The notes under the pieces were generated by a model. It ran no database searches. It saw only the letters and a list, made by a program, of their open reading frames with translations, and was not told the origin of the DNA. Shown one piece after another: positions 22,497 to 64,000 of a stretch of 64,000 bases of DNA. Position 1 is the first letter of the stretch, and every line of letters starts with the position of its first letter. The DNA comes from Candidatus Omnitrophota bacterium (GTDB taxonomy: Bacteria; Omnitrophota; Gorgyraeia; Gygaellales; Profunditerraquicolaceae): the NCBI GenBank assembly GCA_041662125.1, contig JBAZTA010000004.1:128343-192342 (forward strand), in the 5' to 3' direction. The position numbers and the translations under genes were made by a program.

Positions 22497-22571
22497 GGCC
22501 CCATCGTCTAGCCTGGCCTAGGACGAATGGTTCTCAGCCATTAAACACCGGTTCAAATCCGGTTGGGGCTA
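22497..22571 (+). tRNA. tRNA-Glu (anticodon CUC)
   Basis: Collinear with E. coli tRNA-Glu (UCGUCUAG...AGGAC D-arm): acceptor GGCCCCA/TGGGGCT (G1-U72 wobble), anticodon stem AATGG/CCATT with loop TTCTCAG, T-arm ACCGG-TTCAAAT-CCGGT. Confidence 0.7.
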
Positions 22572-46666: not shown

Positions 46667-46945
46667 ATGGTACAAAATGAAAAAATAGAGAGAGGATTCA
46701 TGCGGAAATATATAGGATTTTTTACCATATCCAGCATAGTTATAAAAATACTTGCCTGGATTTTTTTATGCCTTGGTATTTTGGCAGGCGTTGCAGTGTT
46801 CTATCGGCCGGTGCCGGGATATACCTGGATATCAGGGGCATTTGTTTTGGGTATCTACGGTTTTATCGCTTTTTTATTGTATTTGCTGGGGCTTCTCTCA
46901 GGTGTAGCAGCCAAAATTATTGATAAGATCGAAAAAAGTGAATAA
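46667..46945 (+). CDS. Small membrane protein (92 aa)
   Basis: Two TM helices. Confidence 0.4.
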   Translation: MVQNEKIERGFMRKYIGFFTISSIVIKILAWIFLCLGILAGVAVFYRPVPGYTWISGAFVLGIYGFIAFLLYLLGLLSGVAAKIIDKIEKSE

Positions 46946-46961
46946 TCAGAAGGAGGATAGT

Positions 46962-47879
46962 ATGCGATTCTGGAGTGTCGTGTTAGTAGGAGTTGTCTTT
47001 ATGTTCTCAGGGATTATTGGGTGCGATAAAATAAGCGATATGATGAAGCCTAAGAAGAAAGAAGTTGTATCGGCTCTCGTTGTTACCCCGGCAGTAAAGG
47101 GTACGGTCATTGCCAAGGTAAATAATCTGCCGCTTACATTGGAAGAATTGAACCAGGAAGTTGACGCGGAAAATTCCATGGTTAATAAAGACAGGCCTGA
47201 AGATAAGATAACGACGCGTGACCAGAAGATTAAATATTTGAAGGAGCGTTTGATCCGCCGCGTGCTTCTTTTCCAGGAGGCAAAGAACCGGGGGTTAGAG
47301 AGAAAAGAAGAGATCCTTCAGGCGTTGGAGAAAACCAAGCAGGATCTTTTAGTGGTGGAACTGGTGCGCCAGGAAGCAGAGAAGGTTGATGTGGCATCAT
47401 CTGAAATAGAGGAATATTACAATACGTATCAAGCGCAGTTGAAAGATCCTGAAGAAAGGCGTATCCGGGAAATAGGCGTTAGCTCTGAGCAGGAAGCTAA
47501 AGAAGTATTGATCCAGTCATTGCAGGGAACTGATTTTGCCGCAATGGCCCGTGAGAGGTCAAAATTAGCCAGCGCAAAAGACGGCGGCGACCTGGGTTAT
47601 CTTAAACCAAATGTTAAATCTGCCCAATTTAACGCGATGGCGTTCTCAAGTTCGCTTGAAAAAGGACAGACAAGCAATATTTTTAAGAATTCAGACGGGT
47701 ACTATTATATAGTTAAAATAGAAGATATCCGCGGCGGGGCACAGAAGACCTTGACTGAAATGTGGGAGGATATTAAACGGGGGCTAACTTTTTTAAAGCA
47801 GGAGAGAAAGATCGAAGACCTGATCAGTAAGCTTTCCGGCTCCGCAAAAATAGAGATTTACGAAGGGGAAGTTAAATAG
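46962..47879 (+). CDS. Lipoprotein peptidyl-prolyl cis-trans isomerase (parvulin-type, SurA/PrsA-like)
   Basis: RBS AGGAGG; lipobox FSGIIGC; SurA-like helical N-domain; PpiC domain (GGDLGYLKPN..., GYYYIVKIEDIRGG). Confidence 0.75.
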   Translation: MRFWSVVLVGVVFMFSGIIGCDKISDMMKPKKKEVVSALVVTPAVKGTVIAKVNNLPLTLEELNQEVDAENSMVNKDRPEDKITTRDQKIKYLKERLIRRVLLFQEAKNRGLERKEEILQALEKTKQDLLVVELVRQEAEKVDVASSEIEEYYNTYQAQLKDPEERRIREIGVSSEQEAKEVLIQSLQGTDFAAMARERSKLASAKDGGDLGYLKPNVKSAQFNAMAFSSSLEKGQTSNIFKNSDGYYYIVKIEDIRGGAQKTLTEMWEDIKRGLTFLKQERKIEDLISKLSGSAKIEIYEGEVK

Positions 47880-47924: not shown

Positions 47925-48812
47925 ATGCAAAGACAGAAAATCATGCTTATTGCAGGTATCGTGTTATGCGGTTTGACAGCGTTCATGGTCAAGGTATTCA
48001 TTGACCAGCAGAAACAGGAAGTTATTGAAAAAGCCAAAAAGCAATTGCAGGAAATCCAGGCAAATTCTTCTACGGTATTAGTGGCAAGTGTTGATATTCC
48101 CCGGGGATCGCCTATCAACGCGGACTCTCTGGAAACAACTATTATCCCGAATCAATTTATTCAGCCGAATGCGGTGAACGCGTTAAGCAGGATAGAGGGG
48201 ATGATCACTATGGCGCCGATCGCAAGAGGAGAGCAGGTTACCTTAAGTAAGCTTATGCAGTCCCGCCAAGCTGATGGCCTGGCAGACACCACTCCGATAG
48301 GCAAAAGGGCGATTACTATTACCGTGGATAATATTTCTTCTTTAGCGGGCATGCTGAAACCAGGTGATTATGTGGATGTTATTGCCGCTTTAGCCTTGCC
48401 CATGCAGGGCCCTAATGGAACCGTTGCTTCGCAGCCAGCGGTAATTCCTCTTTTCCAAAATATCCAAGTTCTGGCTGTAGGTCAGGAATTAACCTCAAAG
48501 ACCAAAGGGGAATCGCGGTACAAAAAAGAAGAAACTAAAGAAGCATCGCCCTTGATCACGCTTGCGCTTACTCCGCAGGAATCAAATCTTATTGCTTTTG
48601 TGCAGGAACAGGGCAAGATCCGTTTGGTAGTTCGGTCTCCCGCGGATTCTCAGGTACAGCCGTTTCAGCCGGTCGGCTGGGACGCGCTTATGCAATATAT
48701 TATGCCGCAGCTGGGAGAGCCAAAAGTGGAGGAAGTGAAAGTCCCGGATGAGTATGTAGAGATATACCGCGGTTTAAATAAAGAAACAGTAATTTTGCCT
48801 AAAGAAAATTAA
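47925..48812 (+). CDS. cpaB: Flp pilus assembly protein CpaB/RcpC
   Basis: N-terminal TM anchor; SAF-like domain; position at the head of the tad operon. Confidence 0.75.
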   Translation: MQRQKIMLIAGIVLCGLTAFMVKVFIDQQKQEVIEKAKKQLQEIQANSSTVLVASVDIPRGSPINADSLETTIIPNQFIQPNAVNALSRIEGMITMAPIARGEQVTLSKLMQSRQADGLADTTPIGKRAITITVDNISSLAGMLKPGDYVDVIAALALPMQGPNGTVASQPAVIPLFQNIQVLAVGQELTSKTKGESRYKKEETKEASPLITLALTPQESNLIAFVQEQGKIRLVVRSPADSQVQPFQPVGWDALMQYIMPQLGEPKVEEVKVPDEYVEIYRGLNKETVILPKEN

Positions 48813-48817: not shown

Positions 48818-50458
48818 ATGAAAAAATATCTTGCTGTATTGCTGGTTGCCGGGGGATTTTTGTTATTCGCGCGGGCTCACGCGTTAAGCGCGAGAGACTC
48901 TGAGCTTCGTATGTATGTGGGGGAGGTCCAGATCATTCAGGTTAATAATCCAACCCGTGTTATGATCGGTAATCCGAATGTGATCGATGTCAGCAATGTG
49001 GGCAGAAAAGAAATGACAGTCAGCGCCAAAGCTCCCGGTAAAACAACGCTTGTGTATTGGGATACCCTCGGGGAACAGTCATTGAATATAAAAGTACTCG
49101 CGGAGGATTTAGACGCAATTAAAGCCCGGGTTGATAATTTGATCGCGACACTGGGGTATCAGGAAGTCGTCAGCCAGGCTGAAGAAGAAGAAGGGAAAGT
49201 TTACCTTTTGGGGAGATTAAAAACATCTGCTGAGAGAGAAAGGCTTCTGAGCGGGTTAGGTTCTTTGAAGGATAAGGTCAATGACCTCATTGTTGTCCTG
49301 GAAGAATCTGCGGTCGTTGAGATCGATGTTCAGGTGCTTGAATTGAACAAGGATGCCAGTAAAAGCCTCGGCTTTACCTGGCCGAGCGCCATCAATCTTC
49401 TTGAACAGGGCTCGCCTGGGTTGAACGATAGCGGCACAAAATTCTCGACGCTCTTTAAGGTTTTAAATTTACAGAGAGGTACTGTTGATGGCGCGGACCC
49501 GTTTACTTTTAAATTATCAGCATTAGTTCAGGAAGGAAAAGCCCGTATTCTTTCCCGCCCAAAGCTTTCTTGTCAAAGCGGCAAAGAAGCAGAAATGCTT
49601 GTCGGAGGGGAAAAGCCGGTGTTTAGTAGTTCAGTTGTATCCGGAGGAGGGACCAGCACGAGTGTTTCCTATAAGGAATACGGGATCAGGTTAAACATTA
49701 AACCTACGGTAACAGCAAAAGAGCAGATCAAGGTCGGCCTCAAGGTGGAGGTAAGTGAAGTTGGGACAGCTGAGACGATCGGCGCTGAGAATGCTCCTTC
49801 GGCAAAAGCCTATCCGCTCCTTAAACGCACTGCTTCAACTGAGCTTTTTCTTGATAACGGCCAGACACTTGCTATCGGAGGATTGATCAAGCAAAAGACC
49901 GAAACAGATGTAAGGAAAGTTGCCGGACTTGGGGATATTCCTGTCTTAGGGATGTTTTTCCGTAATAAAAGTTATAAAGAAGGCGGCGGGCAGGGGGAGC
50001 GGGGTGATTCGGAATTATTCATTACTTTAACGCCTACTATTGTTTCCCGGGATATGGGGGTAGCGCCAGTAATTAAGCACGTTGAAGCTCCATCGGCAGG
50101 GAAGGTAATAGATCTTGAAGCAGAAAAGCCTTCTGCTGAAACGCCGGTACGGGTAGAAAAAGCGCCTGACCCGTTAGATCATTACGCTCGTGTTGTTAAA
50201 GAGCGTATTATGAGCAGCCTGACATATCCGGAAGTGGCCAAATCCGCTGGTTTTCAGGGTACGGTAAAATTAAGCCTGAAACTTACTTATACAGGGCAGC
50301 TTTTAGAGGCGGTACTCAAGAAGTCTTCGGGTTATCAGGTCCTTGATGATCATGCTTTATCGGTGGCAAAAACTATCGCGTATTATCCGCCTTTTCCTCC
50401 CTCGATTGGCCTGCAGGAAATTTGGATAGACGTCCCAATCGGCTATCATTTAGAGTAA
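48818..50458 (+). CDS. cpaC: Tad secretin CpaC/RcpA with a C-terminal TonB_C-like domain fusion
   Basis: Signal peptide and secretin domain (...RPKLSCQSGKEAEMLVGGEKPV..., GDIPVLGMFFRN). The C-terminal ~90 aa (YPEVAKSAGFQGTVKLSLKLTYTGQLLEAVLKKSSGYQVLDDHALSVAKTIAYYPPFPP) match the TonB C-terminal domain consensus. Confidence 0.85.
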   Translation: MKKYLAVLLVAGGFLLFARAHALSARDSELRMYVGEVQIIQVNNPTRVMIGNPNVIDVSNVGRKEMTVSAKAPGKTTLVYWDTLGEQSLNIKVLAEDLDAIKARVDNLIATLGYQEVVSQAEEEEGKVYLLGRLKTSAERERLLSGLGSLKDKVNDLIVVLEESAVVEIDVQVLELNKDASKSLGFTWPSAINLLEQGSPGLNDSGTKFSTLFKVLNLQRGTVDGADPFTFKLSALVQEGKARILSRPKLSCQSGKEAEMLVGGEKPVFSSSVVSGGGTSTSVSYKEYGIRLNIKPTVTAKEQIKVGLKVEVSEVGTAETIGAENAPSAKAYPLLKRTASTELFLDNGQTLAIGGLIKQKTETDVRKVAGLGDIPVLGMFFRNKSYKEGGGQGERGDSELFITLTPTIVSRDMGVAPVIKHVEAPSAGKVIDLEAEKPSAETPVRVEKAPDPLDHYARVVKERIMSSLTYPEVAKSAGFQGTVKLSLKLTYTGQLLEAVLKKSSGYQVLDDHALSVAKTIAYYPPFPPSIGLQEIWIDVPIGYHLE

Positions 50459-50472: not shown

Positions 50473-52635
<2,163 letters not shown>

Positions 52636-52721: not shown

Positions 52722-53090
52722 ATGCTGATAAAGAACGAAACAAAAAATACGGTCTTAGCTGATAAAGCGGTTATAGCTAATACGCTTTTAAAGCGTATGA
52801 AAGGCTTGCTTGGTGAAAAAGAATTAGCAAGAGGGAAAGCGCTTGTTTTAGAGCCCTGTAATGCAATACATTGTTTTTTTATGCGTTTTACCATAGATGT
52901 TTTGTTTCTTGGGAAAGATAATCGTGTGGTAAAGGCCCTTCCTGAAATAAAACCGTTTCAGTTCTCTAAGATTTATTGGGGAGCTGTTAAAGTAATTGAA
53001 TTGCCTGCCAATACAATCAAGTCTACTCAAACTTCCGATGGTGATATTATCACCTTTGTAAATGTCCAATCTGGTTCTACCCCTTTCTAA
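52722..53090 (+). CDS. DUF192 (COG1430) family protein
   Basis: ...KGLLGEKELARGKALVLEPCNAIHCFFMRFTIDVLFLGKDNRVV matches the DUF192 GLM-R...GMLF...FWMKNT..LDIIF pattern. Confidence 0.55.
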   Translation: MLIKNETKNTVLADKAVIANTLLKRMKGLLGEKELARGKALVLEPCNAIHCFFMRFTIDVLFLGKDNRVVKALPEIKPFQFSKIYWGAVKVIELPANTIKSTQTSDGDIITFVNVQSGSTPF

Positions 53091-53186
53091 TCATTAGGAT
53101 TTGACAAATCAAATTCGCTATGGTATATTATTAATGAGCTTAATAATGTCCAATCTGGTTAATCATTAGTATTCTTAGGAGATAAA

Positions 53187-54767
53187 ATGGGAGTAATTTA
53201 TAAATTACATCAGGATGTGACCGATTATATTTTTGTTATTAAGAAAAAAGACCCATTATTGAGTTGTCGCAAGATTTCTGTGATCATTTCTGAGAAATTT
53301 AAAAGTAAGGTTTCAAAATCAAGTATTAATGCGGTGCTCAAACAAGCTCGTTTGAGTATGCCGGTTGGAAGAAGGCGCAAGCAAAAAAGAAACATTTTTG
53401 AGGCTGTTGGCCTTGGGGCATTTTTCCTCAAAGCCGCTGATTGCCTTACCAATGTCAGCGTCGGGTTCAATGAAATAGTGGCTCAAAAATTGGGTGTTTC
53501 GCTGCAAGATATCGCAGGTAAGACCGACTTTTTGCTTTATAAACAGCTTTTTAGCGATCCACAAAGCCGGGAAACCTTGAATCAGGTCTCTGGTTTAAAA
53601 GCCTTTGTTGGCAGTCGAATTGAAGTGAAGGAAATGGATTCTTATCTTGAAGAAATAAAACAGGTTATGACCTTACCTGCTGTTCTTTGCCAATTAATAA
53701 CGAAATCTTTTCAAGAAATCCGTTGTGTTAAGATCAGATTGATAGATGGTACGTACTTTTTGCTTGATGGCAGGTTATCTACTATTTGGCAATCGGCTGA
53801 GAATATACCTTTCGATTTCTCTGTAACATATAATGAGATAAAGAGTTATATAAAAAATATTATTGCAGGAAAACCGGTCGTTCTATTTATGGGCCCTGAA
53901 AAAAAGCAAGCAATGGGAGAGTTTTTCCGGTTTCTTATGAATTTATATTCGCAAGGTAAAAATATCTCGAATTTAGCTCTTTGTAATAATAGCTCTCAGG
54001 AGCTAGAGGTTATTGATTTTGCTGGTTTGCATGATAAAAAAATGCAGGTTATTTTTGGATTATGGCCTTGGCAATACGGGCAATACCGTAAGATCACATA
54101 TCTTGAAAAATTTAAATTTTATCGTTTCGAACAAATTAAGAAAGATTTTTATATTGCGGATGTTAATGTTGAATTTACGCAACCGATTGTAAACAATAGC
54201 CTTATATTAAGAGGTTGCGCTTTGAAAAACAGTTTAAATGAAAAGGTCAGGCTGGTGATCTTAACTAATGCGTCTGTTTCAGAGTTATCTTCCTCTGATC
54301 TTGTGGCTGCTTACTTGGAACGTTGGCCGAATTTAGAAGAAACGTATGAAGATTATAACCGCAAGAATGAGCTCTTTTTTTATACTGATGCGGCAAAATC
54401 CACCTTTTCTTTAGGGCTTTTAAATGTTAATTTAGAGCCTTCCTTGGGGCTGGATATGCTTTTTAGTTACTATTTGCAGGCGCTTGATTTATACGCGAAA
54501 TGGCGTTTTTTCCCGCAGGGATATAGAAAAAAAGATTTCTCGACGATGAATGAACTGTTTTATCAGTTGCCTTGCCAATTGAAAATAACCAAAAATAAGC
54601 TTTTATTAACATTTATTGTGCCTGCCGAGTACCCTTTTTTGAAAGATCTTTCCTATGCTTGCTGCCGCGTCAATGAAAGGGGCATAGTCTTAAAAAACGC
54701 CTACCGGCTTTTTATGGAAGTATTGCCGCGTTTAATTGATAACCCTATCGCCCTAAATAAATTATAA
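53187..54767 (+). CDS. Hypothetical protein (526 aa) embedded in the tad locus
   Basis: Long ORF with no recognised motif and no signal peptide. Confidence 0.5.
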   Translation: MGVIYKLHQDVTDYIFVIKKKDPLLSCRKISVIISEKFKSKVSKSSINAVLKQARLSMPVGRRRKQKRNIFEAVGLGAFFLKAADCLTNVSVGFNEIVAQKLGVSLQDIAGKTDFLLYKQLFSDPQSRETLNQVSGLKAFVGSRIEVKEMDSYLEEIKQVMTLPAVLCQLITKSFQEIRCVKIRLIDGTYFLLDGRLSTIWQSAENIPFDFSVTYNEIKSYIKNIIAGKPVVLFMGPEKKQAMGEFFRFLMNLYSQGKNISNLALCNNSSQELEVIDFAGLHDKKMQVIFGLWPWQYGQYRKITYLEKFKFYRFEQIKKDFYIADVNVEFTQPIVNNSLILRGCALKNSLNEKVRLVILTNASVSELSSSDLVAAYLERWPNLEETYEDYNRKNELFFYTDAAKSTFSLGLLNVNLEPSLGLDMLFSYYLQALDLYAKWRFFPQGYRKKDFSTMNELFYQLPCQLKITKNKLLLTFIVPAEYPFLKDLSYACCRVNERGIVLKNAYRLFMEVLPRLIDNPIALNKL

Positions 54768-54801: not shown

Positions 54802-54830
54802 TTGACATTGCTATGGGTAAATGCTATATT
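54802..54830 (+). promoter_or_regulatory. Perfect-consensus sigma70 promoter (TTGACA - 17 nt - TATATT) driving the pilin gene array
   Basis: TTGACA at 54802-54807 and TATATT at 54825-54830, followed by a ~200-nt leader before the first pilin ATG at 55037. Confidence 0.55.
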
Positions 54831-55036
54831 TTGAGTGTCACAGCTACGGCAGCGAAAAGGCAATTCTGCTAGGAGGTAGCAGATGCGCAAAGCCACGGGA
54901 CGAAGTAATGCTCGCCGGAAATATGTGTTTTTTTCCTTTGTTTATTGCATCGGGTCACATGCGAGTACGTTAACCGGGTTACCGAAAGCCGTTAGGGATA
55001 TTTGGTAATGCGGTTTTTTTATTTATGGAGTTTATA

Positions 55037-55240
55037 ATGAGTTTTGAAAAGACTTTTAGAAGTAAGAAGGCACAGGCAGTCGTCGAATATATTGTTATAT
55101 TTGTTGTTTTAACGTTCGCGATCCTTTTGGCTTTTGGAGGGCTTAATTTAGGCGACTCCCGCGGTAATAATTCTAAGGTGAATATGAAATCTACATTTGA
55201 CACGGTAGTGGATAATGCCGTGGCGCAAATAAAGGATTAA
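55037..55240 (+). CDS. flp: Flp-family prepilin (class III signal peptide)
   Basis: KKAQAVVEYIVIFVVLTF matches the Flp motif G/A-xxxx-EY followed by a hydrophobic helix. Confidence 0.65.
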   Translation: MSFEKTFRSKKAQAVVEYIVIFVVLTFAILLAFGGLNLGDSRGNNSKVNMKSTFDTVVDNAVAQIKD

Positions 55241-55241
55241 G

Positions 55242-55553
55242 ATGAATAAAAAAGGAGTTATAACGATCGAGTTTTGTATGTTGATTATCCTGTGCGCGGT
55301 ATCAGGCATTTGTATGATGGGGTATTTAAAAGGCGCTATCGCAGGCGGCTGGCATGCCAACGCGGATAGCTTTTCTGATGACCAATATGATGATGCAAGC
55401 AGCACGCTTAATTATACTAAAACTGAAGGGCCGACTGTCACTATTACTGATGTTATGACGGCTAAGACAGCAGGTGGAACTTCTCTCTCTGAAGGCGCGA
55501 ATGATGATGGGATGATTATTTACAGCAATTGGGGGAGCGCAGGTGCTTACTAA
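55242..55553 (+). CDS. TadE-like pseudopilin (103 aa)
   Basis: KKGVITIEFCMLIILCAV TadE-like N-terminal motif. Confidence 0.6.
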   Translation: MNKKGVITIEFCMLIILCAVSGICMMGYLKGAIAGGWHANADSFSDDQYDDASSTLNYTKTEGPTVTITDVMTAKTAGGTSLSEGANDDGMIIYSNWGSAGAY

Positions 55554-55734
55554 AAGAAAAAAAATTATTTTTAACAAAACTTTTTTCCGAGGGCAAAGTG
55601 TGTTAGAATATGCTTTGTTGATCATTACTGTTGCAGCTGTATTTATCGCCATGAACCTGTATATTCGCAGGTCTGTAAATGCCAGGCTGCATAATATGGA
55701 AATTGAGATCAGTCCGCCTATAGCGGTTAATTAA
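55543..55734 (+). CDS. flp: Flp-family prepilin (63 aa)
   Basis: FFRGQSVLEYALLIITVAAVFIA. Confidence 0.7.
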   Translation: MLTKRKKIIFNKTFFRGQSVLEYALLIITVAAVFIAMNLYIRRSVNARLHNMEIEISPPIAVN

Positions 55735-55772
55735 CCGGGGCGGATTTAACAAAAAACGAGGAGGTGAGAAAG

Positions 55773-55958
55773 ATGATGGTGAGCAAGAAAAAAGGTCAGT
55801 CAACCTTGGAGTATGTATTGATTTTAACAGCGGTTATCGCGGGGATAATATTTGCGACTACTCAGTTTATTCAGCCGCGGGTGCAGTCTTCCGTGAACCA
55901 TGTTACGAATCAGATGAACGCTATGGTAAGCAGGATTTCTTTTCCTAATGGGACCTAA
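55773..55958 (+). CDS. flp: Flp-family prepilin (61 aa)
   Basis: RBS GAGGAGGTG; KKKGQSTLEYVLILTAVIAGIIFA. Confidence 0.75.
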   Translation: MMVSKKKGQSTLEYVLILTAVIAGIIFATTQFIQPRVQSSVNHVTNQMNAMVSRISFPNGT

Positions 55959-55997
55959 GATCGACGCAGGTGTATATTTTATAAGGAGGTGGAAGCA

Positions 55998-56333
55998 ATG
56001 ACTCGAAAATGGAGGAAGAGGGCGCAAACAACTGCCGAGTACGCGATATTGATCGCGCTGGTTATCGGCGCAGTGGTTGCGATGCAAATTTATGTAAAAA
56101 GAGGGATACAGGGCCGGATTAAAGAAACGGTGGATTTTGTCGGGACAAACGGTACTGTAGGCAATAGTAATTTTAGTTTTACGACCAATCAGTATGAGCC
56201 TTATTATATTTGTTCGACATCCAATAGTAATCAGAATATGGTTGAGAACCAAAATTATCAAGCAAACGGCAATGTTGCTAGAAATACAACGGCAAATTCT
56301 AGAGTTAATCGTACGCAAACGATGGGATGGTAA
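55998..56333 (+). CDS. flp: Flp-family prepilin with long Asn/Thr/Ser-rich C-terminal tail (111 aa), type A
   Basis: RBS AAGGAGG; KRAQTTAEYAILIALVIGAVVAMQIYVKRG. Paralog of 56742-57080. Confidence 0.75.
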   Translation: MTRKWRKRAQTTAEYAILIALVIGAVVAMQIYVKRGIQGRIKETVDFVGTNGTVGNSNFSFTTNQYEPYYICSTSNSNQNMVENQNYQANGNVARNTTANSRVNRTQTMGW

Positions 56334-56357
56334 TCTGAAAGCGAGGTGAATAAGACA

Positions 56358-56705
56358 ATGTTTATTCGTTTAACGAAACGAGCTCAAAGCACCTTGGAAT
56401 ACGCGGTGATCATCGCGGTTGTGGTAGGGGCGCTCATTGCGATGCAGGTATATGTAAAAAGGGGTTTACAGGGAAGGCTGCGTCAGGCAAGCGATGATAT
56501 CGGCGACCAATTCTCTCCCGGTGTTACAACAACCAGCTATACTACGGTAAGTAATGTCACTACTCGTGAATGGGTTAATAAGGCTATAAGCGGCGCGACT
56601 AACATGACGGGGACAAAAACAGACAGTACTCAGAATCAAAGACGAAACGGTACTGAAAACGTCGCTGCTCAAAATAGTGAATGGTGGTTTACAAACGGTT
56701 CATAA
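56358..56705 (+). CDS. flp: Flp-family prepilin with long C-terminal tail (115 aa), type B
   Basis: TKRAQSTLEYAVIIAVVVGALIAMQVYVKRG. Paralog of 57103-57444 and 57467-57796. Confidence 0.75.
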   Translation: MFIRLTKRAQSTLEYAVIIAVVVGALIAMQVYVKRGLQGRLRQASDDIGDQFSPGVTTTSYTTVSNVTTREWVNKAISGATNMTGTKTDSTQNQRRNGTENVAAQNSEWWFTNGS

Positions 56706-56741
56706 GTGCGTTTTGGCAGAAGACATAAGGAGGTGGAAGCA

Positions 56742-57080
56742 ATGACGCGAAAATGGAAGAAGAAAGCACAAACAACTGCTGAATACGCGGTATTGATCGC
56801 GTTGGTTATCGGAGCAGTGGTTACGATGCAAATTTATGTAAAAAGAGGCATGCAAAACAGGATAAAAAATGTGGTTGACCATACTGGAGCGGGTAGTTTA
56901 CTGGTTGGCAATCGGACTTTTACTCTTTCCGGCAATCAGTATGAGCCTTATTATGCTAATACTCATGCTAATACTCAGCAAAGGTCGGGAGAAGACGCTC
57001 GAATGCAGTATGGAGGCGCTGTTAATAGGATATCGAATTCACAGTCCAACGCAATAAGAAATGGTACGACGGGTTTTTAA
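56742..57080 (+). CDS. flp: Flp-family prepilin, type A paralog (112 aa)
   Basis: The first ~45 codons are near-identical at nucleotide level to 55998-56130; the C-terminal tail diverges. Confidence 0.75.
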   Translation: MTRKWKKKAQTTAEYAVLIALVIGAVVTMQIYVKRGMQNRIKNVVDHTGAGSLLVGNRTFTLSGNQYEPYYANTHANTQQRSGEDARMQYGGAVNRISNSQSNAIRNGTTGF

Positions 57081-57102
57081 TGTAAAGGGGGTGAATAAGA
57101 CC

Positions 57103-57444
57103 ATGTTTATCCGTTTAACGAAACGAGCTCAAAGCACCTTGGAATACGCGGTGATCATCGCGGTTGTGGTAGGGGCGCTCATTGCGATGCAGGTATATGT
57201 AAAAAGGGGTTTACAGGGAAGGCTGCGTCAGGCAACTGATGATGTTGGAGATCAATTTTCTCCGGGTAACACCAATTACCATTATGTAACAAATAGTTAT
57301 GTTGACAGTGATGAAAGATCTGCCGGCGGGAGTTATTTTTCTAATACGATCCCTACAGCAACGACCATAAGCAACCAAAGCCAGAACCGCACGGGCAATG
57401 AAAGAGTTTTGAATCAAACTAATGAACACTGGATAGCGCCTTAA
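57103..57444 (+). CDS. flp: Flp-family prepilin, type B paralog (113 aa)
   Basis: The first ~55 codons are identical to 56358-56520 at nucleotide level; the tail diverges. Confidence 0.75.
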   Translation: MFIRLTKRAQSTLEYAVIIAVVVGALIAMQVYVKRGLQGRLRQATDDVGDQFSPGNTNYHYVTNSYVDSDERSAGGSYFSNTIPTATTISNQSQNRTGNERVLNQTNEHWIAP

Positions 57445-57466
57445 TAATGGCTGACTCGAAGGGAAT

Positions 57467-57796
57467 ATGCTGATACAATTACGCAACACCAGAGGACAGA
57501 GTATAATGGAATATGCGGTCCTTTTAAGCATTGTGGTCGGGGCTTTAGTTGCCATGCAGGTTTACGTTAAGCGCGGCTTGCAGGGAAGAGTCAGGGATTT
57601 AGCTGACCAGATCAGTCCCACGCAGTACGAAGCAGGCCAGACCGAATCACAATATATGACAGTCCAGAGCGGGACCGTTTCGGAAAGTTATAACCAGGGT
57701 ATTTCCCGCCGCTATCAAGACGGAACGAATAATTCGACCGCGGAAACGATGGTGAAAAATGGATCTGAAACAACATATCCAGAAGAAGCGGATTAA
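57467..57796 (+). CDS. flp: Flp-family prepilin, type B-like (109 aa)
   Basis: NTRGQSIMEYAVLLSIVVGALVAMQVYVKRGLQGR. Confidence 0.7.
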   Translation: MLIQLRNTRGQSIMEYAVLLSIVVGALVAMQVYVKRGLQGRVRDLADQISPTQYEAGQTESQYMTVQSGTVSESYNQGISRRYQDGTNNSTAETMVKNGSETTYPEEAD

Positions 57797-58535
57797 AGGG
57801 CAGGCAACAACAGAACTGGCGGTTGCCGGCGTCATCATTATTATGATGCTGGGGTATTTGATGCAGCAGGGGTTTGTGTATAACAGCCGCCAGGCGCTTG
57901 AGATGTATACGTTCCGCCGCGCCCTGCAGTTAACTAAGAGTTCGGAACGGGGAGTAAACCTTACCGTAACCCGCGACCTGATCGTCCCTTCGTTTTTCTC
58001 AAGCATTGGCCGCCAGCGTATTCAAGCCGCCAGTTCCGTGGAAATAAACCCCTGGATCATCTGGATGGCAAAAGAAGATGAGCCGCAGGATATCGGCACC
58101 TACCAGGTCCTTCAACTCGATGAAAAAATGATCAGGGATAACCAGTATGTATTGATCCCTCCTACATTAGCCAAAATCAAACAGGCAGATGACGAAGAAG
58201 ACCCTGAATGGATGTGGGTCCCTTCGCCGGTACGCGAAATTGACCCGCAAACAGCCCTTACCTTACCGGCTAAAACCGCGGCTTATTCTTATACAACAAA
58301 CATTAGTGAAAACAGGACTACTAAAGAGAAAGAAACTACTAAGACATTGACCAGCCAGGATATTATGCAGAGAGGGATAACGTTTCAAACTGCTGCTAAA
58401 ATGAAAGCGGATTATCTCAAAGACCCTGATATTGCTAGCGCGGAGGTGAATGGAGGGAGTATTCCGGACTCTGCGATTATTACGATCGATGAAACAGTGA
58501 CAAAAACAAAGAACGTAAGGACACCGTATGATTAA
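57759..58535 (+). CDS. TadE/TadG-like pseudopilin (258 aa)
   Basis: KRIKGQATTELAVAGVIIIMMLGY N-terminus followed by a large soluble domain. Confidence 0.65.
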   Translation: MDLKQHIQKKRIKGQATTELAVAGVIIIMMLGYLMQQGFVYNSRQALEMYTFRRALQLTKSSERGVNLTVTRDLIVPSFFSSIGRQRIQAASSVEINPWIIWMAKEDEPQDIGTYQVLQLDEKMIRDNQYVLIPPTLAKIKQADDEEDPEWMWVPSPVREIDPQTALTLPAKTAAYSYTTNISENRTTKEKETTKTLTSQDIMQRGITFQTAAKMKADYLKDPDIASAEVNGGSIPDSAIITIDETVTKTKNVRTPYD

Positions 58536-58547
58536 TAAATTAAAGGA

Positions 58548-60077
58548 GTGTCTATGAACCGCAAGAATAAATCACAGGTGATATTAGAATTTGTGCTGGT
58601 GATTGTAACGCTGGCAATTCTTGCGGTTGCCTCAATGCGTCTTTTTTCAAACTTTAATCTTAATATGATTAATCGTATCGATAAATTCAAGGAAAGCCGG
58701 GTTATCGCGGTCAATACCCCCGGCGCAGCCCCTATTTCTCCGGTTGCTTTCCTTGATTACTCTCCGTATAGAGATATTACTGTGCCCGGAGCGGGGACGA
58801 TCCTTCCACCTTTTATCCCGGGAGAATATGATGATGCGCGCTTTGATGAAGCTAACCGTTTGTTTGAAGAGTCAAATGACCTTATACTCGTAACCATCCC
58901 TTATTTTGCAAGCCGGGCGTATGCATCTTTAGGGGGGGCTAATAATTCTGCCGCCTATATTGAGGCTAATATAACTGAAAGCGTTATGCGCTCAGCTTTA
59001 GCCGATTGCCAAGCTATGGAATCACCCCGGCAACAGGCATATGATGACTTCTTTGAAGATATGAGTGGCGTTGACGCTGACCATGATACTTTTGTTGGAG
59101 GGATCGGTTTATTACAGCAGGTTTTGAGCAATCCTAAAATACCCGGTTTATATGACCCGAATCCGGAGAATAATCCGGCGAAATATGGGTATACTGCCGC
59201 AGACACGGCAGCTTTAGCCGCGCTTAAGGCTAAGAATATTGAAAATCGTGAACAACTTCAAGACATCATTACGAGCATTAAAAGTACTAAGTCTGCTATG
59301 GATAATTTATTGGTTACTACAACAAAACCGTATGGCCTTATACGGCCGGAAATAAATCAATCTATATCGCATCTTGATAATGCTACTACTGATGATGCGA
59401 TAGATCAATGGCAGCGTTGGCAATTCGCGATAAATACGGTTCGTCCACAATGTTTTTGTGGACCACCTCCGGGGACAAGTTGTCATGAGTGTTGTGATGG
59501 TGAATATTGTGTCGGTTGTTCGTATGACAATTGCTATCAAGAGTATGATGATCCTGATACCAAGGTTCATGAGGCCGAGATAATTTATGCTTCAGCGGCA
59601 GCGGTTGAAAGTGGGTATTTAGCGTCGTTTGTTGGGCATATTCAAAGAACAAGTAATTACAGCGATATTTGGCTCGATGCGACTTCTGCAAAAAACGCCT
59701 TAAAACGTATTATTGATTATGCCGGGGAAATCAGCGTTGTGCCTGCGGAAATGGAAAATAATTTGCGTAATAAAGTTGATGAATTAGACGGTTTTGTTAC
59801 CAGTGCTCCTTCCAGGAATGATATTATCCGCGCGGTTACTGCTTGCGATGATATGCTTGTTATTATAAAGCAAGTTGAGATAGAAGATGCAAAAATAATA
59901 TATACGCCCCCGGCTAAAGCCCCGGACTATACCTATTTAAAGAACCTTATCACTCAAATTAAAACCGCGCTTTCCAGTGCCCTGATCAATTGGGAAGATG
60001 CTTCATCGCGCGATACGTATATTGCCAGCGCGCGGAAAAAGATAGATCGTTTGGTAGAGATAATAGCATTACGGTAA
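58548..60077 (+). CDS. Large TadE/G-like pseudopilin (509 aa) with Cys-rich motif; candidate tip adhesin
   Basis: Pilin-like N-terminus NKSQVILEFVLVIVTLAILAVA; central FCGPPPGTSCHECCDGEYCVGCSYDNCY (8 Cys in 28 aa). Confidence 0.6.
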   Translation: MSMNRKNKSQVILEFVLVIVTLAILAVASMRLFSNFNLNMINRIDKFKESRVIAVNTPGAAPISPVAFLDYSPYRDITVPGAGTILPPFIPGEYDDARFDEANRLFEESNDLILVTIPYFASRAYASLGGANNSAAYIEANITESVMRSALADCQAMESPRQQAYDDFFEDMSGVDADHDTFVGGIGLLQQVLSNPKIPGLYDPNPENNPAKYGYTAADTAALAALKAKNIENREQLQDIITSIKSTKSAMDNLLVTTTKPYGLIRPEINQSISHLDNATTDDAIDQWQRWQFAINTVRPQCFCGPPPGTSCHECCDGEYCVGCSYDNCYQEYDDPDTKVHEAEIIYASAAAVESGYLASFVGHIQRTSNYSDIWLDATSAKNALKRIIDYAGEISVVPAEMENNLRNKVDELDGFVTSAPSRNDIIRAVTACDDMLVIIKQVEIEDAKIIYTPPAKAPDYTYLKNLITQIKTALSSALINWEDASSRDTYIASARKKIDRLVEIIALR

Positions 60078-60090
60078 AGGGGAAAAAAGT

Positions 60091-61146
60091 ATGATGCGAT
60101 TTTTGAGGAAGGAAAATGGCCAGGTGTTCCCCTTTATGATCATCATCGTGGTTATCATTATACTGGCCATTGTTGCGACCATGCTCCTGGGAGAAGTGGG
60201 GTTTAATCGTATCCGTTTAAGCAATGTTATTGATTCGGCTGTCCTTTCTCCGACATCAGGGTTTTGCCGCTCGCTTAATCAGATAGTCAAGATCAGTTTC
60301 GGCGATGGAGGGTTACTTCAGAAATATATCGCCCTGCAGGTTTTTTTCCTGAAGCCTTTTAAGCCGGCAATTTGCCCTTGCGACGGGATTCCCTATCCGT
60401 TTACCTGGCAGTTCATTTGGAGTCCGTTTATTATGCCTTTTTACATACAAACTTTAATTGAGATCTTTCAGCTTTATGAATCAGCTGAAGATATTGCGGA
60501 AAAAGCCCCTGAAGATCTACGCAAAGGTATTCTTGACCGCGCAATGGGAGGGGCTTTGATCGATGAGGCTAAGCCTTTTAGATCGAGCGAAGTGACCCGT
60601 GATTCTAACGGCAAGATCACTGCTTTAGATTATAATGCGTATTTGGATCGCGATTCTCATTTTGATGAAGTATACCGTACACAGAAATCAAGCCTCTGGT
60701 CGGGGGATCGTGCGACCTATGCCTGGAATAAAAAATACTGGAAGAATAAATCAGCGGGCACATTCTATAAACCCGGGGTTTTAGAGACGAGCTGTGGGTC
60801 GTGCAGCGATAGCGACTACGGCAGTTATTTAGATGTTAATTTCGTTAATGTTCCTCGCAACGTATCAATTAGCGCGCAGTTCATGCCGTTGTTTTATCTT
60901 TGGCAAAAAGTTATCCCCGGATATCCGAAATGTTATTGTATTGTTTTACCCGGGTTTGCTTTTGATCCCTATGCCTGGATCAGTAACATAAATATCGATA
61001 GCAAATCGTATGGCCTTAACGTGCGTAAGAAACTTGATTATCAGGATTTGACTTTTTTTGGCAGGCAGCCGATTATTACCCACAAGAACCAGGTAAGAAT
61101 TCACGGCTCGGTACAAACAGGGTATGATTTTGGATTGGAGAGTTAA
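60091..61146 (+). CDS. TadG-like pilus assembly protein/pseudopilin (351 aa)
   Basis: KENGQVFPFMIIIVVIIILAIVATMLL Tad_N-like N-terminus; Cys pairs in the C-terminal domain. Confidence 0.6.
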   Translation: MMRFLRKENGQVFPFMIIIVVIIILAIVATMLLGEVGFNRIRLSNVIDSAVLSPTSGFCRSLNQIVKISFGDGGLLQKYIALQVFFLKPFKPAICPCDGIPYPFTWQFIWSPFIMPFYIQTLIEIFQLYESAEDIAEKAPEDLRKGILDRAMGGALIDEAKPFRSSEVTRDSNGKITALDYNAYLDRDSHFDEVYRTQKSSLWSGDRATYAWNKKYWKNKSAGTFYKPGVLETSCGSCSDSDYGSYLDVNFVNVPRNVSISAQFMPLFYLWQKVIPGYPKCYCIVLPGFAFDPYAWISNINIDSKSYGLNVRKKLDYQDLTFFGRQPIITHKNQVRIHGSVQTGYDFGLES

Positions 61147-61149: not shown

Positions 61150-61938
61150 ATGGGAAGGTTTTTGGCAGTAACCATAGTAATGTTTTTTTTCTTGGCGCGC
61201 CACGCTTGCGCGGAAAACCGTGAACTGCGTAATATCCCTTTACCGGACAACTCTGAGGTTGTCGCGCTGGATACGCCGTTCCAGCTTAATGACCGTCAGG
61301 GAAATTTGAGCCGGCTGCGTTCATTTAAAAAACCGCAGGAAATCATTGATTTTTATCAGGGCTATTTTGTAAAGAATGGGTGGGAGTTTGTTTCCTATAA
61401 AGAGGAATGGCGGACACTTTTTTTGAAGAAAGGCGATGAGAATTTGTATGTGCAGGTCAATGATCATGGGGATGCGCTGCCTGCGGATGTGTATATCGCG
61501 ATGAGCCGCCAGGACCTGGCGGTTTGCCCGCAGATGAAAGATGTTTATGCGCAGGAACAGATCGCTCCTGATGTCCTGGGGAAAGACTTTCCCGATATCA
61601 TGCGTTATCCCGGAAGCAAGCGCCGAGTCAATATGTTCCCGGATGCCAATAAAGGAATGGTGGTTTATGAGGCGCAGGCTGAGGTTGCCGAGGCAGCCGC
61701 GTTTTTTTATAATACCCTGAAGGCGCAAGGATGGGATGATAATCCGGCGTTTACTAAAGGTTTCCAGAAGCAGAAGAATCCTGATCTCAAAGATACCAAG
61801 ATCATGTTTTTTGAAAAAAATCTGGAAACGGTGATCATTAATATTTATCGCGTCTCTGAATCGAAAGGGAAGGCGCGCGTCTTAATCTCTATTTTAAAGA
61901 ATATGACCGGAGATGTTGCTATGCCGGCAATGCAGTAA
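61150..61938 (+). CDS. Secreted hypothetical protein (262 aa) within the tad locus
   Basis: Signal peptide MGRFLAVTIVMFFFLARHACA. Confidence 0.5.
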   Translation: MGRFLAVTIVMFFFLARHACAENRELRNIPLPDNSEVVALDTPFQLNDRQGNLSRLRSFKKPQEIIDFYQGYFVKNGWEFVSYKEEWRTLFLKKGDENLYVQVNDHGDALPADVYIAMSRQDLAVCPQMKDVYAQEQIAPDVLGKDFPDIMRYPGSKRRVNMFPDANKGMVVYEAQAEVAEAAAFFYNTLKAQGWDDNPAFTKGFQKQKNPDLKDTKIMFFEKNLETVIINIYRVSESKGKARVLISILKNMTGDVAMPAMQ

Positions 61939-61951: not shown

Positions 61952-62800
61952 ATGTTTTTTCTTATTATTCTTTTAATCATCGCTTCGATCATGCTGATCA
62001 TTTTCGGGACCATGCCGACATTCTTCGATAAGATGAAGATCTGGAGTGAGAACAAAGAAAAGAATATGGAAATAGAAATGGACCGTCTTTTTTATTATGA
62101 TAAGAGCCCTAAACAGATCATGCGCCTTTATTTTATCCTGCCGCCTATTTTAGGGGCAGCGGGTTTTATCTTCACCCAGAATATGATTTTTGCCGGTATA
62201 GGGGTTTTCTTAGGTTTATTGATCCCCAATGTCGTCTTAAAATTCAGGGATTCGCTGCGCCGGATGAAATTCAACAGCCAGATACTTGACTCGATCCTGA
62301 TCCTTTCCTCTTCTTTAAAAGGAGGGTTGTCTCTTTTACAGGCATTTGAAGTTTTAGTGGATGAGATCCCGCCGCCGATGAGCCAGGAGATGGGGCTGGT
62401 CGTGCGCGAGAATAAGATGGGTGTTTCTATGGAAGAGAGCCTGAGGCGTTTAAGTAAACGAATGACGATGGATGAATTGACCCTTGTCGTTAACTCTATC
62501 CTGGTGGCCCGGGAGACCGGCGGTGACTTGACCAAAGTCTTTAGCCGCCTGACGACCACGATACGGGATAACAATAAATTGAAAGATAATGTCAGGACAT
62601 TAACGCTTCAGGGAAGGCTGCAGGGTATTATCATGTCGGTTATCCCTTTTGTGTTTATCTGGTGGGTTATTACCTTTAACCGCGAGCATTTTAATATTAT
62701 GCTTCAGAGCGATACCGGCAGAGGCCTCTTGGTGCTGGCACTTGTTTTGCAGTCCATTGGCATGGTGTTGATAAAAAGATTTAGCAGCGTAAAGATTTAG
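61952..62800 (+). CDS. tadB: Flp pilus assembly inner-membrane platform protein TadB (T2SSF domain)
   Basis: N-terminal TM helix, T2SSF domain (LLQAFEVLVDEIPPP...LTLVVNSILVARETGGDL) and C-terminal TM helices. Confidence 0.85.
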   Translation: MFFLIILLIIASIMLIIFGTMPTFFDKMKIWSENKEKNMEIEMDRLFYYDKSPKQIMRLYFILPPILGAAGFIFTQNMIFAGIGVFLGLLIPNVVLKFRDSLRRMKFNSQILDSILILSSSLKGGLSLLQAFEVLVDEIPPPMSQEMGLVVRENKMGVSMEESLRRLSKRMTMDELTLVVNSILVARETGGDLTKVFSRLTTTIRDNNKLKDNVRTLTLQGRLQGIIMSVIPFVFIWWVITFNREHFNIMLQSDTGRGLLVLALVLQSIGMVLIKRFSSVKI

Positions 62801-62808: not shown

Positions 62809-63687
62809 ATGATCGAAATGATCTATATATGTGTTATCGCAGGGATGGGCCTTATATTCTTTGGTATATTCGGGGTGCCCAGTACAACGATCAGAAGGGT
62901 CAGGCTTCCTGAGGCGGCCAATAAGGAAAAATCCATTAGAATGCACTCTTTCCTTTATTATGTTTTTCCTTTTACCAAGAAATTATTAGAGAGGCTCAGG
63001 CTTCAGGAAAAGACCAAGAATAGGGTGGATGCTGCTCACGTCAAGCTTTTAGCGGAAGAATTCTTTAATCTCAAGATCCTTTCGGCGATTTTGTTCGGAT
63101 CATTGAGTTTTTTCTTTACGAATAAATTCGAGCCGGGAATGGTTACAATTTCTGCTGCGATTGGGTTTATCATTCCGGATATATGGCTTAATAAGAAGAT
63201 CCACCAGCGTAAGAATAGTATTGTCCGGCTTTTGCCTGAAACCGTTGACCTGCTGGGCCTCTGCGTTGAGGCAGGCCTTGATTTTGCCACGGCAGTCAAA
63301 TGGATCATTGAGAAAACCGCGATGAACCCGATGGTGGAAGAGTTAGCCTTTGTTTTAGAGGAGATAAAGTGGGGTAAGCCCCGCAGCCAGGCATTAAAAG
63401 ATATGTCTAAACGGCTGAATATTATGGAAGTCAGTTCTTTTGTGCATACGCTGGTGCAGGCTGAGCGTATGGGAACTCCGGTTGCTGAGGCCTTTGCCAT
63501 ACTTTCTGAAGATGTCAGGCTGCAGCGTTTCAGGAGAGGCGAACGTATTGCTTTGCAGGCTCCGATGAAGATACTTATTCCGCTTATTTTTTGTATTCTG
63601 CCGGTTATTGCCATTATTATCGGCGGGCCTATATACTTGCAGTTTATGGATGGCGGATTACTTAACAGTGTAGGGGTAGGCAAATAA
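62809..63687 (+). CDS. tadC: Flp pilus assembly platform protein TadC (T2SSF domain)
   Basis: T2SSF domain (LPETVDLLGLCVEAGLDFATAV...FVHTLVQAERMGTPVAEAF) with flanking TM helices. Confidence 0.85.
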   Translation: MIEMIYICVIAGMGLIFFGIFGVPSTTIRRVRLPEAANKEKSIRMHSFLYYVFPFTKKLLERLRLQEKTKNRVDAAHVKLLAEEFFNLKILSAILFGSLSFFFTNKFEPGMVTISAAIGFIIPDIWLNKKIHQRKNSIVRLLPETVDLLGLCVEAGLDFATAVKWIIEKTAMNPMVEELAFVLEEIKWGKPRSQALKDMSKRLNIMEVSSFVHTLVQAERMGTPVAEAFAILSEDVRLQRFRRGERIALQAPMKILIPLIFCILPVIAIIIGGPIYLQFMDGGLLNSVGVGK

Positions 63688-63688: not shown

Positions 63689-64000
63689 ATGAAGAAAATC
63701 GTTTATAGGATAATCAGCTTGGTCTTGGTCTTCACGCTTTGTTTCCAGCCATGCGTACAGCTGGACGCGCGCGCGGAAAAGATCGACTTGCGGGAAGAGT
63801 CCAGCGGCAGCGCGTTCGGGTATTGCGCGGCGATCTTGAGCGGTTTATTGGCCAGCATGTCTACCACCAGCAGTTTTAATGTTATCCAACTGTTTGTACG
63901 GTGTTATTTGGTTCCGACGCTGGTTAAGTATATCGTGCAGGCAATCGGGATTAAAGATTCTAAATTAGCGGCGATCGCCTGTGTGTTTATTTCTACGCTG
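63689..64000 (+). CDS. Secreted hypothetical protein, 3'-truncated by the window edge
   Basis: ATG at 63689; signal peptide MKKIVYRIISLVLVFTLCFQPCVQLDA; the ORF is open to the window end. Confidence 0.45.
   Translation, partial: MKKIVYRIISLVLVFTLCFQPCVQLDARAEKIDLREESSGSAFGYCAAILSGLLASMSTTSSFNVIQLFVRCYLVPTLVKYIVQAIGIKDSKLAAIACVFISTL

Follow-up and report, generated by a model that had tools for sequence, protein, structure and literature searches.

The DNA described here is a stretch of 64,000 nucleotides from a Candidatus Omnitrophota bacterium (GenBank assembly GCA_041662125.1, contig JBAZTA010000004.1, positions 128,343 to 192,342), referred to below as the window. Towards its end lies a Tad-type gene locus, and within it, at 55037-61146 on the plus strand, twelve genes for prepilin-like proteins (o1 to o12) stand back to back. 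Their starts and product lengths, obtained from a listing of open reading frames (ORFs) and from inspection of the sequence for ribosome-binding sites (RBSs), are collected in the table, and they reproduce the figures given for twelve consecutive prepilin-like genes by an earlier sequence-only reading of this DNA. Neighbouring genes of the block overlap or sit 22-39 nt apart and no terminator-like sites were seen between them in a scan of 55037-61146, an arrangement that therefore fits a single operon. The long pilins of the block are identical to the NCBI proteins WDL87_07910/15/25 from a metagenome-assembled Candidatus Omnitrophota genome.

Eight of the genes (o1 and o3-o9) are of Flp type, encoding a basic leader, the motif [G/A]↓Q-x-x-x-E-Y (the arrow marks the cleavage site) and a hydrophobic helix, which is the G↓xxxxEY pattern of the Flp/Fap pilins. 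Variants of this pattern occur in o2, in o10, where the motif ends in E-L, and in o11, which has Ser at position -1 (S↓QVILEF), while o12 reads G↓QVFPF and is without Glu5. When both strands of the whole window were scanned for [GAS]-x4-E-[YFL..] followed by 16 mostly hydrophobic residues, 11 of the 12 block genes matched, as against two chance matches in the remaining ~58 kb; with 11 matches in a 6-kb block, the clustering is not random. The stricter form K/R-[GA]-Q-x3-E-[YFL], which had been ascribed to all twelve genes, is exact in nine, and o2, o11 and o12 deviate from it. The size of Flp/Fap pilins (~40-60 aa mature, one helix) is found in o1, o3 and o4 (46-55 aa mature) and is exceeded by o5-o9, with 99-106 aa mature and a helix plus a predicted beta-hairpin. 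Judged from their orthologues, the twelve genes appear to represent about ten kinds of protein: the short Flp-like o1, o3 and o4, the 103-aa o2, the long-tail pilins o5/o7, o6/o8 and o9, and the large proteins o10, o11 and o12.

Table. Features of the Tad-type locus, in order along the window. Arrows mark the prepilin cleavage site.
Feature	Coordinates	Strand	Product (aa)	Description
PPIase	46920-47879	+		Peptidyl-prolyl isomerase, Pfam (Rotamase_2-type locus)
CpaB/RcpC	47925-48812	+		Pfam RcpC, 1.9e-24
secretin::TonB_C	48818-50458	+		Pfam Secretin 5.6e-37, T2SS-T3SS_pil_N, C-terminal TonB_C
CpaE::CpaF ATPase	50473-52635	+	720	Pfam ParA/AAA_31 and T2SSE (1.9e-65) in one protein
DUF192	52722-53090	+		Pfam
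Unknown protein	53187-54767		526	Lies after the DUF192 gene and ahead of the pilin block
Promoter	54802-54830	+		Sigma-70-like, TTGACA-17-TATATT, extended -10 TG; 11/12 consensus
c-di-GMP-I riboswitch aptamer	54849-54986	+		RF01051, 37.3 bits (gathering 35), model positions 1-87
Expression platform	54972-55020	+		Intrinsic-terminator hairpin (AACCGGGUUACC ... GGUAAUGCGGUU + U7)
o1	55037-55240	+	67	Short Flp-like prepilin (KKA↓QAVVEY); orthologues 78% (L085), 49% (L083)
o2	55242-55553	+	103	Prepilin-like (KKG↓VITIEF); small minor-pilin candidate; no Pfam match
o3	55543-55734	+	63	Short Flp-like prepilin (FRG↓QSVLEY)
o4	55773-55958	+	61	Short Flp-like prepilin (KKG↓QSTLEY); strong Shine-Dalgarno sequence (GAGGAGGTGA) ahead
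o5	55998-56333	+	111	Long-tail pilin, QYEPYY subtype
o6	56358-56705	+	115	Long-tail pilin, DQFSPG subtype
o7	56742-57080	+	112	Long-tail pilin; o5 paralogue, second copy of duplicated unit
o8	57103-57444	+	113	Long-tail pilin; o6 paralogue
o9	57467-57796	+	109	Long-tail pilin, third subtype (ISPTQYE)
o10	57759-58535	+	258	Minor-pilin-like protein (IKG↓QATTEL)
o11	58548-60077	+	509	Prepilin-like (507 aa from ATG at 58554); 10 Cys; fast evolving
o12	60091-61146	+	351	TadG-like, N-terminal transmembrane helix, no Glu5
Signal-peptide protein	61150-61938	+	262	Conserved between pilin block and tadB
tadB	61952-62800	+		T2SSF, E = 4.7e-19
tadC	62809-63687	+		T2SSF, E = 2.7e-16
Giant ORF (start)	63689-64000	+		Signal peptide, then Ala/Gly/Asp-rich low complexity

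In order to place the small proteins, two alignments, one of the long-tail family (A3) and one of short Omnitrophota pilins (A7), were compared by hhalign with a set (A6) of 30 short Flp proteins from Tad loci of other phyla, 28 of which match the Pfam model PF04964. The long-tail family aligned with the Flp set over 44 columns with 95.2% probability (E = 2.9e-8), and the short pilins with 96.8% probability (E = 2e-10). Some relatives carry the JGI or NCBI names Flp or class III signal peptide protein, and the Class_IIIsignal model PF04021 is on record for 3 of 120 long-tail relatives, with weak matches on relatives in three further Omnitrophota loci (L086-L088). Because of the homology found by hhalign, the prepilin motif and their place among Tad genes, we accept the small proteins of the block as putative divergent prepilins of the Flp superfamily, in line with the earlier proposal of Flp-related genes within a Tad-type locus. 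Their leaders are basic (K/R-K/R-G/A↓Q, archaeal class-III-like), whereas those of the comparison Flp set are acidic (D/E-E-x-G↓). Across the loci of other phyla (L004-L080) the acidic residues stand just before the cleavage Gly, as in KDEEG↓Q; basic leaders (KKRA↓Q), which resemble archaeal class III signal peptides, were seen in Omnitrophota and additionally in L049 and L050.

The five long pilins (o5-o9, 109-115 aa) have tails of 64-70 aa in which Asn, Ser and Thr make up 31-44% of residues and which are almost free of Cys (a single one, in o5). The signature of the family extends the helix (MQxYVKRGLQGR ... D..G.Q[FY].P). More than 5000 database proteins were found with a profile built from nine long pilins. 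Among the 120 best, every protein is 96-130 aa long and most are from Omnitrophota, and more than 100 relatives typically cover 92-97% of the query, tail included. When the window was compared with L085, one of the related loci described below, the ratio of nonsynonymous to synonymous substitution (dN/dS) was 0.11-0.31 for the tails, 0.05-0.13 for the heads and 0.14 for the secretin, and it lay at 0.10-0.30 for all twelve block genes. Such values, together with relatives that span the tail, rule out that the tails are out-of-frame artefacts; to judge from these comparisons the polar tails noticed earlier are genuine, in-frame and constrained coding sequence.

An AlphaFold2 model of o6, built with 120 sequences, predicts a helix at residues 12-49 (predicted local distance difference test, pLDDT, 81-93) and a two-stranded beta-hairpin at 58-101 (pLDDT 59-70). 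The top Foldseek matches of this model, the beta-hairpin stems of pore-forming toxins, were dismissed as geometric because the o6 tail is not amphipathic. Searched against sequences in the PDB, the profile of the long-tail family gave one spurious low-complexity match. A tail-only profile run against 1.84 billion representatives found nine proteins, essentially the same small pilins, and the tail is therefore family-specific.

The block holds twelve genes in the window because a two-gene unit, o5-o6, has been duplicated in tandem to give o7-o8; the duplication is present in the window and in L085, and the unit is single in L083 and L088. The two copies show a pattern of concerted evolution, over 55998-57444 in the window and 8849-10345 in L085. 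Their 5' ~150 nt, comprising RBS, leader and helix, are 93-100% identical between o6 and o8, and likewise for both pairs in L085, and this same region has diverged by 10-17% between orthologues of different genomes. Synonymous divergence (dS) of the heads is 0.06 for o6 versus o8 and 0.50-0.63 between orthologues, and the leader residues co-vary within a genome, with MFIRLTKRA in both window copies and MFIRSKKRA in both L085 copies. The heads are thus homogenised by gene conversion, and the tails have diverged and keep their one-to-one orthology.

It could be asked whether the genes of the block encode alternative major pilins, an arsenal serving antigenic, adhesive or host-range variation and possibly bearing glycosylated tails, as the sequence-only reading had suggested. 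The tails of the paralogues do differ strongly (19-38% identity tail to tail) beside nearly identical heads, and gene conversion acts on the pilin genes. However, conversion evens out the heads and leaves the tails unshuffled; every paralogue has a one-to-one orthologue in L085, as most do in L083 and L088 too. Purifying selection acts on the tails at a strength similar to that on the secretin, which, with the one-to-one orthology, argues against antigenic hypervariation, and the genes form one tight operon in which no internal promoters, terminators or invertible repeats were seen. As regards glycosylation, N-x-S/T sequons are mildly enriched in the window tails (16 observed, 9.9 expected) and in the 120 relatives (2.13 per tail versus 1.39 expected, ~1.5-fold), with a semi-conserved sequon position near residue 91-99, but 26 of the 120 relatives have no sequon. 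Glycan genes (family 2 glycosyltransferases, a flippase, a radical SAM protein and a PMT_2 protein) lie 9-25 kb upstream on the other strand; the adjacency to glycan clusters to which the earlier suggestion appealed is not conserved, no such cluster adjoining the Tad locus in L086-L088, and in L088 the locus abuts a signalling module and a tRNA gene instead. Glycosylation of the tails is thus possible and unsupported, and we consider a repertoire of interchangeable variants improbable.

The AlphaFold2 model of o10, for which 34 Omnitrophota-type homologues were found, has a mean pLDDT of 79 and consists of a helix (residues 12-62) and a beta domain. The fastest evolving member is o11 (64% identity to its orthologue in L085, 41% in L083); a word-based homologue search brought up 4 proteins, not enough to build a useful model on, and no Pfam match appeared at E up to 10. 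A Cys-dense stretch in o11 (...CFCGPPPGTSCHECCDGEYCVGCSYDNCY...), of which a similar patch occurs in an 800-aa TadG-like protein of the relative L001, may form a tip domain stabilised by disulfides or metal. Neither o2 nor o11 matches TadE PF07811 or Tad PF13400, a Pfam rescan of the orthologues of o2, o10, o11 and o12 gave nothing above threshold, and PF13400 is on record for the counterparts of o12 in L087 and, as a weak match, L086. The four TadE/G-like pseudopilins of the earlier reading therefore stand as to their lengths and the near-threshold PF13400 score of o12, and fall short in that no curated model passes; for the large proteins of the block the term is an analogy from motif, size and position, with membership not demonstrated.

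Counterparts of the module were retrieved in six related Omnitrophota loci (L085, L083/L084, L088, L086, L087 and L001), and the order is PPIase, CpaB, secretin::TonB_C, CpaE::CpaF, pilins, TadB, TadC, giant ORF; the upstream machinery from PPIase to DUF192 is in the same order in L083-L088. Synteny is gene for gene, with the same pilin series, in L085 (67, 103, 63, 61, 113, 114, 113, 114, 109, 258, 507 and 354 aa), L083/L084 (in L083 67, 99, 58, 61, 111, 117, 112, 258, 484 and 357 aa) and L088 (55, 102, 58, 61, 116, 105, 107, 259, 476 and 328 aa), and L086, L087 and L001 have rearranged pilin modules of similar gene number. Block proteins are 64-88% identical to their orthologues in L085 and 41-69% in L083, compared with 84% and 58% for the secretin and 85% and 63% for CpaB. 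Each related locus has 10-12 pilin-like genes, while the pilin-motif count in 77 non-Omnitrophota loci with a related ATPase is mostly 0-4, with a maximum of 7. The repertoire is thus large for a Tad locus, but what had been described as an exceptional arsenal is the gene-for-gene conserved norm of this clade rather than a peculiarity of one genome. On a further contig, L082 (JBGLNK010000001.1, 2.3 Mb), the ~520-aa gene and the pilin block recur at 6893-12897 with coordinates as in L083 and with one pilin gene called shorter (83 versus 112 aa); the flanking CpaB-secretin-ATPase and TadBC genes are missing there and unrelated metabolic genes take their place, so that either the assembly is chimeric or the pilin module has been relocated.

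The block is headed by a promoter, both hexamers of which are conserved in L085 and L083 (alignment A4), and by an aptamer of the cyclic di-GMP (c-di-GMP) class I, which has a ~60-nt insertion in its P2 loop. Above-gathering matches to RF01051 (37.1-39.9 bits) precede the first pilin gene in L085, L083, L086 and L087, and in L086 and L087 that first gene is of the o4 type. In L088 a c-di-GMP-I riboswitch (48.7 bits) lies ahead of the giant ORF instead (region 19567-20318), and a search of L001 to E <= 1 found no c-di-GMP aptamer upstream of the pilin block. RNAalifold, applied to the 5 syntenic copies, gave 27 consensus pairs, 8 of them with compensatory changes. The aptamer 3' strand (54972-54983) can alternatively pair with 55004-55015, followed by U7, to form a terminator hairpin (-21.8 kcal/mol, z = -3.0) that L085 and L083 have kept, with a stem that pairs perfectly. 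This competition leads us to predict an ON switch: once c-di-GMP is bound, termination would be prevented. The riboswitch is a new element of a locus type already in the literature: in the searched text of bioRxiv 10.1101/2023.11.21.568195 neither 'riboswitch' nor 'c-di-GMP' occurs, and pilZ and GGDEF alone are mentioned.

A three-gene module on the minus strand of the window (18666-22381) encodes a FIST sensor, a histidine kinase and a response regulator::GGDEF protein; a tRNA gene lies at 22497-22571. In L088 (1-3200) the Tad locus lies directly beside this module and a tRNA, and the module may therefore be a source of the c-di-GMP signal. About 24 kb of haem and glycan genes separate the module from the Tad locus in the window, a region that may have been inserted beside the tRNA.

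The machinery around the block is that of a Tad system, with the core components RcpC/CpaB, RcpA/CpaC secretin, TadZ/CpaE, TadA/CpaF, TadB and TadC all identified by Pfam. The fusions of secretin with TonB_C and of CpaE with CpaF, both noticed earlier, were confirmed in the same way, but the second is widespread, both halves being matched in 67 of 80 retrieved loci from many phyla. The protein encoded between the block and tadB has no Pfam match at E up to 10 in its window copy, and its orthologues show weak matches to PF27226 AF_1845. No Peptidase_A24 was found by Pfam scans among window ORFs of at least 120 aa, nor did a regular expression for the A24 motif GxGDVKL, which flags typical A24 ORFs in 28 of the 77 comparison loci, find any instance in the 64 kb; TadV/CpaA and TadD are absent from the window, including any TadD-like small tetratricopeptide repeat (TPR) lipoprotein between cpaB and tadC. 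The lack of a prepilin peptidase and of TadD reported in the sequence-only reading is thereby borne out. In L001 a 176-aa TPR protein with a hydrophobic N-terminus, encoded ahead of DUF192, may be TadD-like.

The last ORF of the window begins 1 nt after the tadC stop and runs off the end. It had been considered as a possible site of the missing processing function, and as a peptidase it is ruled out by its signal peptide, its low-complexity composition and its long counterparts. The ORF after tadC has minimum lengths of 1772 aa in L085 (region 16602-20345), 641 aa in L083 and 1308 aa in L087, and in L088 a 1038-aa LysM protein and then an ORF of at least 4303 aa follow. From its composition and these counterparts the truncated ORF, which has no Pfam match at E up to 10, is the start of a giant gene.

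The constant company of a giant gene invites another explanation, that the machine is mainly a secretion device like a type II secretion system (T2SS), with a pseudopilin piston that exports or anchors the downstream giant protein. A giant ORF follows the locus in every relative, in L088 with a c-di-GMP riboswitch ahead of it, and a multi-member, conserved and non-redundant pilin set is typical of T2SS. According to West-Roberts et al. (bioRxiv 10.1101/2023.11.21.568195), giant genes of Omnitrophota are preceded by a conserved T2SS-like system that consists of rcpC, gspD/E/F, a Rotamase_2 PPIase and many small class III signal peptide genes and that they interpret as tied to the giant proteins. 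The components are, however, Tad-type rather than Gsp-type (RcpC/CpaB, a T2SS-T3SS_pil_N secretin, a CpaE-like ParA and two TadB/C-type platforms), and no GspC/L/M is present at the locus. Moreover, the giant proteins are reported to have SecA-like domains of their own and many transmembrane segments. Export as the main function thus seems unlikely to us, though it can coexist with a filament.

Several other genes of the window deserve mention. The 526-aa protein encoded just ahead of the block has a weak N-terminal HTH_33 match and its own promoter with 11/12 consensus (53101-53129), and is kept in the relatives (513-549 aa, 39-69% identity); in L087 its gene is inverted and stands beside an IS200-type Y1 transposase gene. 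At 44368-46638, shortly before the locus begins, a 756-aa protein with a long multi-pass membrane N-terminal part and C-terminal TPRs is encoded, which is conserved in L083/L084 (759 aa); the membrane part has no Pfam match at E up to 10, and TPR repeats were the sole matches among PDB sequences. This protein, or the PMT_2 (GT-C) glycosyltransferase at 38232-39884, could be a candidate protein glycosyltransferase, and nothing ties either to the pilins. Further upstream are a 1114-aa S8 subtilase (8465-11809), a 1535-aa protein without Pfam match (13318-17925), an IS200-type Y1 transposase gene (18106-18597) and three tRNA genes, at 8149, 12842 and 22497.

Taken together, these observations suggest to us, with a probability of about 65%, that the block is a conserved module encoding the subunits of a Tad-type filament machine of Omnitrophota, about ten in number and non-redundant, among which a long-tail Flp subfamily probably builds a fibre clad in beta-hairpins. 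The module would supply the filament subunits of a machine of the Tad type (type IVc) that forms a pilus or pseudopilus, with the helices forming the filament core, the ~45-residue hairpins clothing its surface and the large proteins priming or capping it. Each conserved paralogue would have a structural role of its own, like the minor pilins of T2SS and type IV pili, and would not be an interchangeable variant. Transcription would run from the strong promoter into the c-di-GMP-I riboswitch, and since the aptamer competes with the terminator, high c-di-GMP would permit read-through into the pilin genes, tadB, tadC and probably the giant gene. An A24 peptidase from another part of the genome would cleave the leaders.

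A number of results weigh against this interpretation. The profile searches that the sequence-only reading had proposed (PF04964, PF07811 and Tad_N) all scored under the curated thresholds: with Flp_Fap PF04964 (gathering 32.2 bits) the lone match among the twelve was o8 (13.0 bits, E = 0.09), with TadE PF07811 (gathering 22.9) o10 reached 14.3 bits and its L083 orthologue 15.1, and with Tad PF13400 (gathering 22.3) o12 reached 19.2. Class_IIIsignal PF04021 (gathering 23.7) gave 19.2, 20.0, 16.1, 18.3 and 16.0 bits for o4, o5, o6, o7 and o8, and NCBIfam, run against 10 of the 12 proteins, found nothing relevant. The likeness to Flp detected by hhalign spans ~45 largely hydrophobic residues, confidence in the o6 hairpin is moderate, the o6 model has no Foldseek match in the PDB at E <= 0.001 and the o10 model has no PDB fold match. 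Processing is assumed, an A24 gene being absent within 10 kb of the locus in all six relatives. The ON polarity of the riboswitch is a prediction from competing base-pairing.

With no curated model over threshold, no fold match and no peptidase nearby, one might suppose that the small ORFs are not pilins at all, but unrelated small membrane proteins or over-called ORFs that share a hydrophobic N-terminus. Yet 11 of the 12 genes keep the G/A↓Qxx-x-EY motif at a fixed distance from a basic leader, hhalign ties the small ORFs to Flp, as do the database names of some relatives, and the orthologues are under purifying selection and have good RBSs. They also stand exactly where Tad loci keep flp and tadE-G. 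We regard this possibility as very improbable indeed. A bolder version of the filament-machine interpretation, that the block, tadBC and the giant gene form one riboswitch-controlled attack organelle, a heteropolymeric Tad-type filament of about ten non-redundant subunits on which long-tail Flp proteins form a sheath of beta-hairpins and the giant protein is presented to, or exported onto, prey or host, is speculative and in our opinion doubtful; the consistent lack, throughout the clade, of an A24 peptidase gene at the locus could further mean that a non-canonical enzyme or a shared PilD processes the leaders.

The Omnitrophota are abundant, uncultured and ultra-small bacteria suspected to be predators or parasites, and the Tad-like locus beside their giant genes is the leading candidate for their contact apparatus. 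The subunit module comprises about ten proteins, a set that is fixed and on which purifying selection acts, and it includes a family of ~100-aa Flp-related pilins that has thousands of metagenomic members and is captured by no Pfam or NCBIfam model. The family alignment offers a hidden Markov model for annotation, and the locus a predicted inducer of expression and candidate major subunits.

Canonical Tad/Flp (type IVc) pili, represented in Pfam by PF04964, PF07811, PF13400, PF16976, PF00263, PF00437 and PF00482 and encoded for instance by flp-1 to tadG of Aggregatibacter and by the cpa genes of Caulobacter, have ~2-5 pilin genes. The locus shares with them CpaB/RcpC, the secretin, CpaE/TadZ-like and CpaF/TadA ATPase domains, TadB and TadC, as well as the pilin G/A↓xxxxEY motif with its hydrophobic helix and the larger TadE/F/G-like proteins after the pilins. 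It differs in having 10-12 pilin-like genes, in lacking tadV and TadD, in the fusion of the secretin to TonB_C and in pilins that score below the Pfam thresholds; in addition, five of the pilins are ~100 aa when mature and have a beta-rich tail, unlike the Flp proteins of the 77 comparison loci (~40-50 aa). The paralogous adhesion pilins PilA1-PilA6 of Haloferax volcanii reportedly have a near-identical N-terminal hydrophobic domain and divergent, N-glycosylatable C-terminal parts, and share with the block the class-III-type basic leader with G/A↓Q; however, they are archaeal, processed by PibD and encoded by scattered genes, whereas the genes of the window form a tandem array with heads kept alike by gene conversion. 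In Clostridioides difficile a c-di-GMP-II riboswitch lies upstream of pilA1. Both leaders place a c-di-GMP aptamer at the 5' end of a pilin operon, with a terminator-type platform and predicted induction at high c-di-GMP, but the Omnitrophota aptamer is of class I, has a 44-60-nt P2-loop insertion, belongs to a Tad-type locus and in one relative lies ahead of the giant gene.

Tad-type machines with several pilins are shared with organisms that attack other cells, namely Bdellovibrio and Myxococcus, whose Kil system is said to be the Tad-type machine of a predator. We know of no giant gene and no riboswitch at these predator loci, which have 2-4 pilin-motif genes, short Flp-size products and nearby A24 motif genes. 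The CpaE::CpaF ATPase of the window has full-length relatives in Bdellovibrionales (41-43% identical), and the flp genes of Bdellovibrio were described by Avidan et al. 2017, as cited in PMC10066038. Within the Omnitrophota, Seymour et al. report Tad complexes across Velamenicoccia. The locus type is the same as that described in bioRxiv 10.1101/2023.11.21.568195 and PMC10066038, conserved across Omnitrophota with a giant gene downstream. The searched text of these two sources treats neither the set of pilins with its long-tail family nor the duplicated unit and its gene conversion, and neither the lack of a peptidase nor a riboswitch; to a locus type that is already known the present analysis thus adds, as new details, the pilin family, the conversion pattern, the clade-wide absence of a nearby peptidase and the riboswitch.

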